Origin: Eledone cirrhosa
Taxonomy: Eukaryota
DNA: 64,000 nucleotides
Direction of reading: 5' to 3'
Assembly (NCBI GenBank): GCA_964016885.1
Contig: OZ024740.1
Span: 66,030,001-66,094,000, forward strand
The notes beneath the pieces were generated by a model. It worked only from the letters and a program-made list of their open reading frames with translations. It was not told where the DNA came from and ran no database searches. Shown here piece after piece: positions 1,812 through 1,877 of this stretch. Position 1 is the stretch's first letter. The number at the start of each line of letters is the position of its first letter. The translations under genes and the position numbers were made by a program.

Positions 1812-1877
1812 CCAACCCGAGGCATATGGCCCTTAAAGCGATGAAATGCCCAGGACGGTTGGAGGGTCACTGATGAA
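1812..1877 (+). ncRNA. Candidate pseudoknotted (non-circularly permuted) hammerhead ribozyme with kink-turn, copy 1
   Basis: CCAACC-C-GA-GGCAT-A-TGGCCCT-taaagcga-T-GAA-ATGCC-cag-GA-C-GGTTGG-AGGGTCA-CTGATGA-A; helices covary with 16321-16386. Confidence 0.7.

Follow-up and report, generated by a model that had tools for sequence, protein, structure and literature searches.

A predicted type-SGC hammerhead variant with a kink-turn and a leader-built stem II in abundant mobile repeats of Eledone cirrhosa

Does a short, repeated piece of the Eledone cirrhosa genome encode a hammerhead ribozyme and, if so, how would its RNA fold and what carries it? The window considered here is a stretch of 64,000 nts (contig OZ024740.1, positions 66,030,001 to 66,094,000 of the forward strand), for which a preliminary description had reported a candidate hammerhead with the strand order S1-S3-S2 and a stem III that continues through a kink-turn. 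All of the hammerhead core elements listed there were found at the same coordinates, which support both the strand order and a pseudoknotted fold. The core words CUGANGA (1870-1876) and GAAA (1843-1846) are present, and their conservation in the copies analyzed below is partly built in, as most searches required them. The claim that the strand order is novel was not borne out: it is the order of type SGC, which has been described and shown to cleave in vitro for motif HRIMA-1 and its variants (Eckert, Friedrich, Weinberg and Weinberg 2023, PMC10085705).

Three copies of the motif were found in the window. The family-1 copy at 1812..1877 (+) aligns without gaps to a diverged family-2 copy at 16321-16386, as had been reported, with 44 of 66 bases identical, and a third copy (2535-2600), located 723 nt downstream of the first, is identical to it. 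The six double-compensatory changes between the two families were confirmed (1814/1860 and 1817/1857 in the distal helix, here called P4; 1823/1848 in stem III; 1830-1832/1864-1866 in stem I), and the C.C to U.U change beside the G.A pairs is also present. Stem I, originally drawn with seven pairs (TGGCCCT/AGGGTCA), stands for six of them. Its outermost pair, 1833/1863, is broken (U.C) in the diverged copy and is canonical in 23/43 own-genome and 0/9 metagenome representatives; since this pair is not kept, stem I is taken to be 6 bp long. Stem II had been described as a single pair, which is not so, as a leader just upstream of the motif forms a fifth helix (P5) that directly continues stem II, and in the family-2 copy this helix is kept by a C-G to U-A change. 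From 5' to 3', the motif consists of the leader, P4, the non-bulged kink-turn strand, block S, UAA, block G, the kink-turn bulge, P4', stem I' and CUGAUGA (Table 1). The preliminary description mentions neither the leader helix nor the third copy, and it places the motif neither in mobile repeats nor at the 3' ends of retroelements. Hammerhead and kink-turn positions are numbered according to standard usage.

Table 1. Coordinates of the predicted motif, its parts and its repeats in the window
Feature	Position	Strand	Details
Family-1 mobile repeat	1670..2670	+	~1.4 units of a 723-nt non-coding unit, within (AT)n
5' leader, stem II 5' strand (helix P5)	1806..1811	+	pairs 1807-1810/1838-1841
P4 5' strand	1812..1817	+	pairs with 1857-1862
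Kink-turn non-bulged strand	1818..1820	+	3n C, G2n, A1n
Block S	1821..1833	+	stem III 5' strand 1821-1825; A17 = 1826; predicted cut 1826/1827; stem I 5' strand 1827-1832; frayed base 1833
UAA linker	1834..1836	+	stem I to stem II
Block G	1837..1850	+	stem II 3' strand 1837-1842; GAA 1843-1845; stem III 3' strand 1846-1850
Kink-turn bulged strand	1851..1856	+	3-nt bulge, G1b, A2b, 3b
P4 3' strand, A1863, stem I 3' strand	within 1857..1877	+	P4 3' strand 1857-1862; stem I 3' strand 1864-1869
CUGAUGA, then A1877	1870-1876, 1877	+	A1877 pairs with U1842 here
Second tandem copy of the family-1 motif	2529..2600	+	identical over 2535-2600; predicted cut 2549/2550
Family-2 repeat unit	15939..16458	+	~500 nt, non-coding, within (AT)n
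Family-2 motif including leader	16315..16386	+	predicted cut 16335/16336

A pyrimidine run ending in AG was also observed at window positions 1790-1799, ~7 nt before the family-1 leader, and a similar run is present in most own-genome subfamilies and in the Octopus Naiad consensus (Naiads are discussed below). Such a run with its AG near the leader could be a 3' splice site beside the putative ribozyme.

We examined whether the predicted pairs are kept among diverged copies. A set of 45 own-genome representatives was picked by sequence profile, without a pairing filter and without 19 gapped matches (among them a subfamily with Watson-Crick pairs in the kink-turn, see below). In this set, 83.5% of cells were paired, compared with 67.1% in shuffled and 33-47% in slid controls, and double changes were found in 23 of the 24 model pairs. 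Seven of the eight top covarying column pairs were model pairs, with only one at E<=0.05. P4 had 83% of its cells paired and double changes in 6/6 pairs, and the leader helix P5 had 80% and 5/5, respectively. The pair A15.1-U16.1 is U-A in 43/45 representatives, and the three bases of the UAA linker are kept in 44/45, 44/45 and 45/45, the seed of that set having required TAA.

A second set of 52 diverged copies combined 43 own-genome with nine metagenome representatives; two out-of-register sequences (L166 and L199) were excluded, and L322, which repeats the motif of L318, was counted once with it. Here, the 12 most covarying of 2,701 column pairs were all model pairs, three of the top column pairs reaching E<0.05 against a custom tree-based null. 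Same-branch compensatory events numbered 49, against a mean of 4 and a maximum of 16 in 500 re-pairings. RNAalifold, unaided, returned P4, a 3x6 internal loop and stem III, and the folding stability of single sequences equals that of shuffles (z about 0).

Three helices with covariation support abut the core: stem I, stem III and the leader-built stem II. At least three stem II pairs can be formed from the leader in 44/52 copies and from the tail after CUGAUGA in 1/52; a stem II with a downstream GAAA is possible in 1/52 copies. Stem II is considered to be built from the leader because N11.1 pairs with the first leader base in 9/9 distinct metagenome sequences (seven as G-C). It pairs with the base after CUGAUGA in one of these nine, and the base equivalent to A1877 is unpaired in most metagenome copies. 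The closing pair is less regular in the own genome, where N11.1 has a canonical partner by either route in 33/43 copies (the base after CUGAUGA in 27/43, the leader in 19/43) and is U or A in most of them, versus the usual G10.1-C11.1. A canonical type I, II or III reading was tried and rejected: it can be drawn in only 1/52 copies, the order is S-G-C, and Rfam gave no match at the gathering score anywhere in the window and no hammerhead match up to E=10 in 1650-2700. Thus, judged by sequence comparison, the conserved RNA structure is real and strongly kept, and the predicted fold is a variant of the type-SGC hammerhead. With the NUH triplet kept in 50/52 representatives and G at position 17 in only 1/52, we think it very probable that RNA carrying the motif would cleave after A1826.

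The kink-turn consensus proposed at first was well supported and held across subfamilies and species. G1b and A2b occur in 96 of the first 100 matches listed (by eye) for a pattern that leaves both positions free; among the 52 representatives, A1n is invariant and 2n is G in 33, U in 18 and A in one. The pair 3b.3n is canonical in only 11/52 and non-canonical in 41/52, though its neighbours pair, and kink-turn folding rules favour a non-Watson-Crick 3b:3n (PMC8191799). The position -1b:-1n is C:G in 24/52 and U:G in 14/52 copies. The window copy has C:G at -1b:-1n and C:C at 3b:3n, a combination that folds in metal ions (PMC8191799), and U at 2n is a substitution seen in Thermus Kt-23 (PMC2790904). 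We infer from these bases that the element would adopt the kinked shape in the motif. The consensus has exceptions: among 269 reference contexts, eight have Watson-Crick pairs in place of both G.A pairs and four have a larger internal loop there. This subfamily (L183, L180, L257 and relatives), in which a linker 2 nt shorter was observed, is a natural control for the kink-turn.

If the RNA is active, two forms come into question. In a compact monomer, the bend at the kink-turn would lay P4 alongside stem III and the core, bringing it into contact with stems I and II. This form is favoured by the exact conservation of the kink-turn across distant hosts, its consensus and spacing matching base for base in this genome and in metagenome contigs from other animals, and also by the metal-ion-folding combination of the window copy. 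In a crude monomer geometry, which rests on assumed rise and angles and not on coordinates, only ~8 Å separates P4 from stem I; against the monomer, a gap of ~17 Å remains in the same model before the top of the leader helix is reached, and 0-1 bases are available to span it. The Watson-Crick subfamily (8/269) and the four larger loops also speak against it, as do the lengths of stem III and P4 in Naiad consensus sequences, which by eye trade against each other (about 5/9, 6/8, 8/6 and 10/4 bp) in a way incompatible with folding back, and the crude geometry gives gaps of 26-36 Å for the other length combinations. We would therefore put the monomer well short of an even chance. The second form is a domain-swapped dimer, made by two copies in tandem. 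The ~17 Å gap at the leader helix and the existence of the Watson-Crick subfamily make it at least as likely as the monomer, and, given activity, it has about an even chance of being the active one. Each copy would fold into a hairpin of P4, kink-turn and stem III, which is the local fold predicted by both single-sequence folding and RNAalifold. Since this hairpin leaves the leader and CUGAUGA tails unpaired, they are free for a neighbour, and each partner would lend both tails to the neighbour's loop, while a lone 3' copy without a partner would survive for reverse transcription. Dimeric activity has been described for Penelope-type hammerheads (Cervera and de la Pena 2014, PMC4209133).

To estimate abundance in this genome (3.0 Gb, rich in AT microsatellites), the 3' half of the motif was counted at exact spacing with three non-overlapping patterns, reversed patterns serving as controls. 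The patterns matched 19,038 + 964 + 878 times (~20,900), versus 0 + 11 + 43 (54) for the controls; six of 30 fetched loci of the 964-match pattern are a palindromic type I hammerhead read antisense. The linker plus block G alone matched 16,364 times (14 in controls), and an exact family-1 34-mer occurs in 134 copies. The predicted variant is thus among the most abundant ribozyme motifs of an animal genome, and it is unseen by Rfam.

Fetched copies are located in tandem or inverted non-coding repeats within (AT)n, with units of ~725 nt in family 1 and 495-535 nt in family 2; one family-2 array holds 58 motif matches in 30 kb. Family-1 arrays elsewhere have a period of 721-806, and the copies of this family are 98-99% alike; the family-1 repeat ends ~70 nt after CUGAUGA. 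Flanks were counted for 79 blocks of family 1 and close subfamilies: an inverted copy adjoins the 5' side of 35 blocks, and 55 finish in (AT)n. This architecture is that of Penelope-like insertions, Naiads included (Craig, Yushenova, Rodriguez and Arkhipova 2021, PMC8557442).

The window also contains other mobile elements. A Penelope-like element (8381-12631 on the minus strand, 16522-17361 on the plus strand, and 952-1126) contains, on the minus strand, an intact 969-aa frame (9722-12631) of reverse transcriptase plus C-terminal GIY-YIG. It also has a copy of the terminal repeat in inverted orientation (94%) and two minimal type I hammerheads, 8520(-) and 17222(+); the family-2 unit is located in (AT)n immediately ahead of this inverted repeat. 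Several non-LTR and other reverse-transcriptase elements have left fragments at 31956-47495 and 51776-54108, with Pfam RVT_1 matches at 38197-39282, 41841-42731 and 46857-47495; the region at 39-40 kb recurs as a diverged duplicate near 52-54 kb. There is a weak DUF4371 match at 4847-5296, which we take to be perhaps a hAT-type transposase remnant, and a long inverted repeat at 55975(-) and 56059(+) with near-identical arms.

A scan of metagenome contigs gave 17 matches, of which ten have the whole fold, one has it in part (L332) and six are chance matches; the partial and chance matches were left out of the alignments. The spacing of the ten whole-fold copies is identical to that of the genome copies, and G2n-A1n, for which no selection had been made, is present in 10/10. 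Seven of the ten are located just behind the C-terminal restriction-like endonuclease region of a non-LTR (RT-RLE) frame, with the predicted cut 6-92 nt past the stop codon (L317, L320-L323, L327, L330), and the other three either are truncated or lie close to the end of their contig. The frames of L322 and L327 extend into the leader and P4. The relatives of these frames are reverse-transcriptase proteins, mostly of 500-1,200 aa, those with names coming mainly from fish and lancelets and one from a clam; the frames may belong to clade HERO. A search of viral contigs yielded 53 pattern matches, none with more than 11/16 stem pairs, which were rejected as chance. The motif thus places a putative hammerhead in the 3' UTR of RT-RLE retrotransposons.

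The Naiads offer a further carrier. They were reported to be without canonical hammerheads, only cores and half cores being marked, and why they seem to lack the hammerhead of other Penelope-like elements is a stated open point (PMC8557442). In the Naiad consensus file of that paper, covered by eye through word searches and two whole parts and hence non-exhaustively, a SGC-type fold was found at the end of at least 11 of 54 sequences: three Acropora, two Octopus and one Euprymna by the headers seen and, by file order, one ctenophore, three more cnidarian and one crustacean. By eye, the two Octopus consensuses have a kink-turn, a leader helix and flanks like those of family 1, and the others have a bulge or junction in the kink-turn place. 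The entries Omin, Adux and Skow-1 showed no motif by eye up to their ends. In the same file (File S5), six consensuses end in a type-CSG fold, three of them under Nippostrongylus headers among those seen; type CSG had been published from only two sequences.

Taken together, these data indicate that the motif is probably a hammerhead ribozyme variant carried at the 3' ends of retroelements, and, somewhat less firmly, we favour the view that the repeats of this genome descend from Naiad 3' ends. The competing origin, which we consider less likely, is that the ribozyme is a module exchanged among retroelements; the repeats would then stem from an RT-RLE element, or their carrier would be the intact Neptune-like Penelope family found at the same (AT)n sites. 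In its favour are the closest spacing match, which is found in RT-RLE elements, and the intact 969-aa Penelope-type frame in the window. Two patterns for reverse transcriptase gave 0 matches in this genome; a looser one gave 42 (five in controls), and a copy fetched from these is a decayed element that by eye resembles the published Octopus Naiad consensus (PMC8557442). No hammerhead was visible in the last 200-240 nt of 5/5 copies of this Naiad-like family, whose copies are broken and 65-87% alike, compared with 98-99% in family 1, which likewise favours another origin. A distinct 560-nt 3' piece of this family (L312-L316) has 488 first-look candidates. Against a non-Naiad origin, the repeats show Penelope-type traits in their tandem and inverted arrangement and in their (AT)n target, the Octopus Naiad consensuses carry the motif with similar flanks (by eye), and tblastn with Penelope and RT-RLE proteins found no frame ending near the motif in the fetched own-genome loci. 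An autonomous carrier or a coding frame joined to the motif was likewise not found in these loci, which are a small part of the ~20,000 copies. The two origins are only partly exclusive, as the source of the repeats and their present mobiliser may differ.

How might cleavage serve such elements? Tandem or read-through transcripts would be cut into unit-length RNAs, which a Penelope-type reverse transcriptase would then copy into (AT)n; we hold this route to be rather more plausible than not. The elements end ~120 nt past the predicted cut and integrated copies retain the whole motif, which requires either that a single 3' copy is spared from cleavage or that the template is a circle; a swapped dimer would account for this. 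Six of the 39 5' junctions that were mapped are at the predicted cut, 16-17 nt upstream of G12 (p about 0.01), a count that is weak since two of the six are identical and several of the 39 are indels, and from which 35 of 345 contexts had been dropped for want of a close reference. Separately, two loci 34 Mb apart on one contig (L295:4262 and L296:4358) have an identical inverted junction, which falls precisely on the predicted cut and shows a microhomology of 3 bases.

A rival reading is a hammerhead-derived fold that no longer cuts and instead serves as a 3'-end binding site for the reverse transcriptase or a kink-turn-binding protein. In its favour, the motif lies within ~130 nt of the element 3' end, where a single transcript that cut itself would lose its priming end; the motif is intact in integrated copies; and the stem II closing pair is irregular. 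Yet the NUH triplet and the near-absence of G at position 17 are kept as cleavage requires, the rotated form (type SGC) cleaves in vitro (PMC10085705), and the weak junction excess lies at the predicted cut, and we regard loss of cleavage as quite improbable. Chance resemblance or an assembly artefact in a microsatellite-rich region has a negligible probability: short degenerate patterns do give matches without a fold (53/53 viral, 6/17 metagenome), but this explanation is ruled out by ~20,900 matches against 54 in controls, the covariation, contig pieces matching this stretch in three public sequencing runs and the same fold in other organisms.

Returning to the ribozyme reading, its parts can be joined into one proposal, which we put forward tentatively, at somewhat less than an even chance for the whole. 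The layout would lie outside the six published block orders, with the chain entering and leaving between A9 and stem II and a kink-turn closing the pseudoknotted ring. It would be a mobile 3'-end module of Naiads and of RT-RLE elements in fish-like hosts, present here in ~20,000 retrozyme-like copies, and would cut only when two tandem copies swap tails. If this is true, non-circular hammerheads (SGC-type and CSG) are the ribozymes that Naiads seemed to lack. The motif bears on that apparent lack in any case and can be tested with 80-nt RNAs. Eckert et al. raised a geometric puzzle concerning the link between the I-II helix and stem III (PMC10085705); its solution is the kink-turn, unless these ribozymes work as swapped dimers. 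With a kink-turn inside it, a ribozyme could also be open to control by L7Ae-family proteins.

In the open-licence PubMed Central and bioRxiv literature, where a report elsewhere is possible, no description was found of a kink-turn hammerhead, of a hammerhead in an RT-RLE 3' UTR, of a SGC-type hammerhead in animals or of the motif in Naiads, and the words 'kink' and 'k-turn' have 0 occurrences in the main and supplement text of Eckert et al. 2023 (PMC10085705). According to that paper, non-circularly permuted hammerheads had been recovered from metatranscriptomes and metagenomes; a single bacterial case is doubtful, and no eukaryotic genome had yielded one. The SGC examples come from metatranscriptomes, none of them from the genomes of known organisms.

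Comparison with type SGC defines the motif most closely. Both have the block order S-G-C, a 3-nt linker from stem I to stem II (UAA here), a helix joining the other sides of stems I and II (P4 here, the counterpart of the published stem I-II interaction helix), a direct link from this helix to the far end of stem III, and a spare base after CUGAUGA. By eye, the published SGC-1 oligo runs S, 3-nt linker, G, I-II helix strand, stem I', CUGAUGA, spare U, stem II and other strand (PMC10085705), and the published scheme assumes that block C cannot be interrupted. In type SGC, block C is unbroken and both free ends are next to block S. In the motif described here, the break in the chain comes after A9 or N10.1, the leader supplies the 5' strand of stem II, and the predicted kink-turn closes both strands of the link to stem III. 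As modelled, the motif can be derived from HRIMA-1 by circular permutation, with the opening at the spare base that follows A9 and the former free ends joined through the kink-turn. It is filed as a type-SGC variant because it would work like type SGC but its block C is interrupted. Hence the strand order itself has already been published, and what is new in the predicted fold is the wiring, namely the leader-built stem II and the kink-turn closure. The latter resembles the standard kink-turn (Kt-7 type) and Kt-23 in its 3-nt bulge, G1b.A1n and A2b.G2n (PMC8191799, PMC2790904, PMC5061560), and Kt-23 also in the U at 2n of 18/52 copies; it differs in lying inside a predicted hammerhead, a setting for which no description was found in the literature searched, and its kinked shape is predicted from sequence alone.

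Among mobile elements, the repeats share with Naiads the (TA)n targets and the tandem and inverted 5'-truncated copies (PMC8557442), features that are common to other Penelope-like clades and so are not diagnostic, and they differ from Naiads in that the window repeats are without the coding frame (N-terminal GIY-YIG plus C-terminal RT). They are like the non-LTR retrozymes of animals in being non-coding, low-GC tandem repeats with one hammerhead per unit and a link to Penelope-like elements (Cervera and de la Pena 2020, PMC7229834; a second source on these retrozymes is the preprint of Li, Clavereau and Pollet 2026, 10.64898/2026.07.22.740005). Non-LTR retrozymes have type I hammerheads and units of 150-450 bp, whereas the units here are ~500-750 nt long and the predicted hammerhead is non-circularly permuted. 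Finally, the motif is similar to the minimal dimeric type I hammerheads of canonical Penelope-like elements in its terminal-repeat position and in the dimers proposed for tandem copies (PMC4209133). Those hammerheads are circularly permuted, without a kink-turn, and dimerize via a short palindromic stem III, whereas here two copies would pair by swapping leader and CUGAUGA tails.
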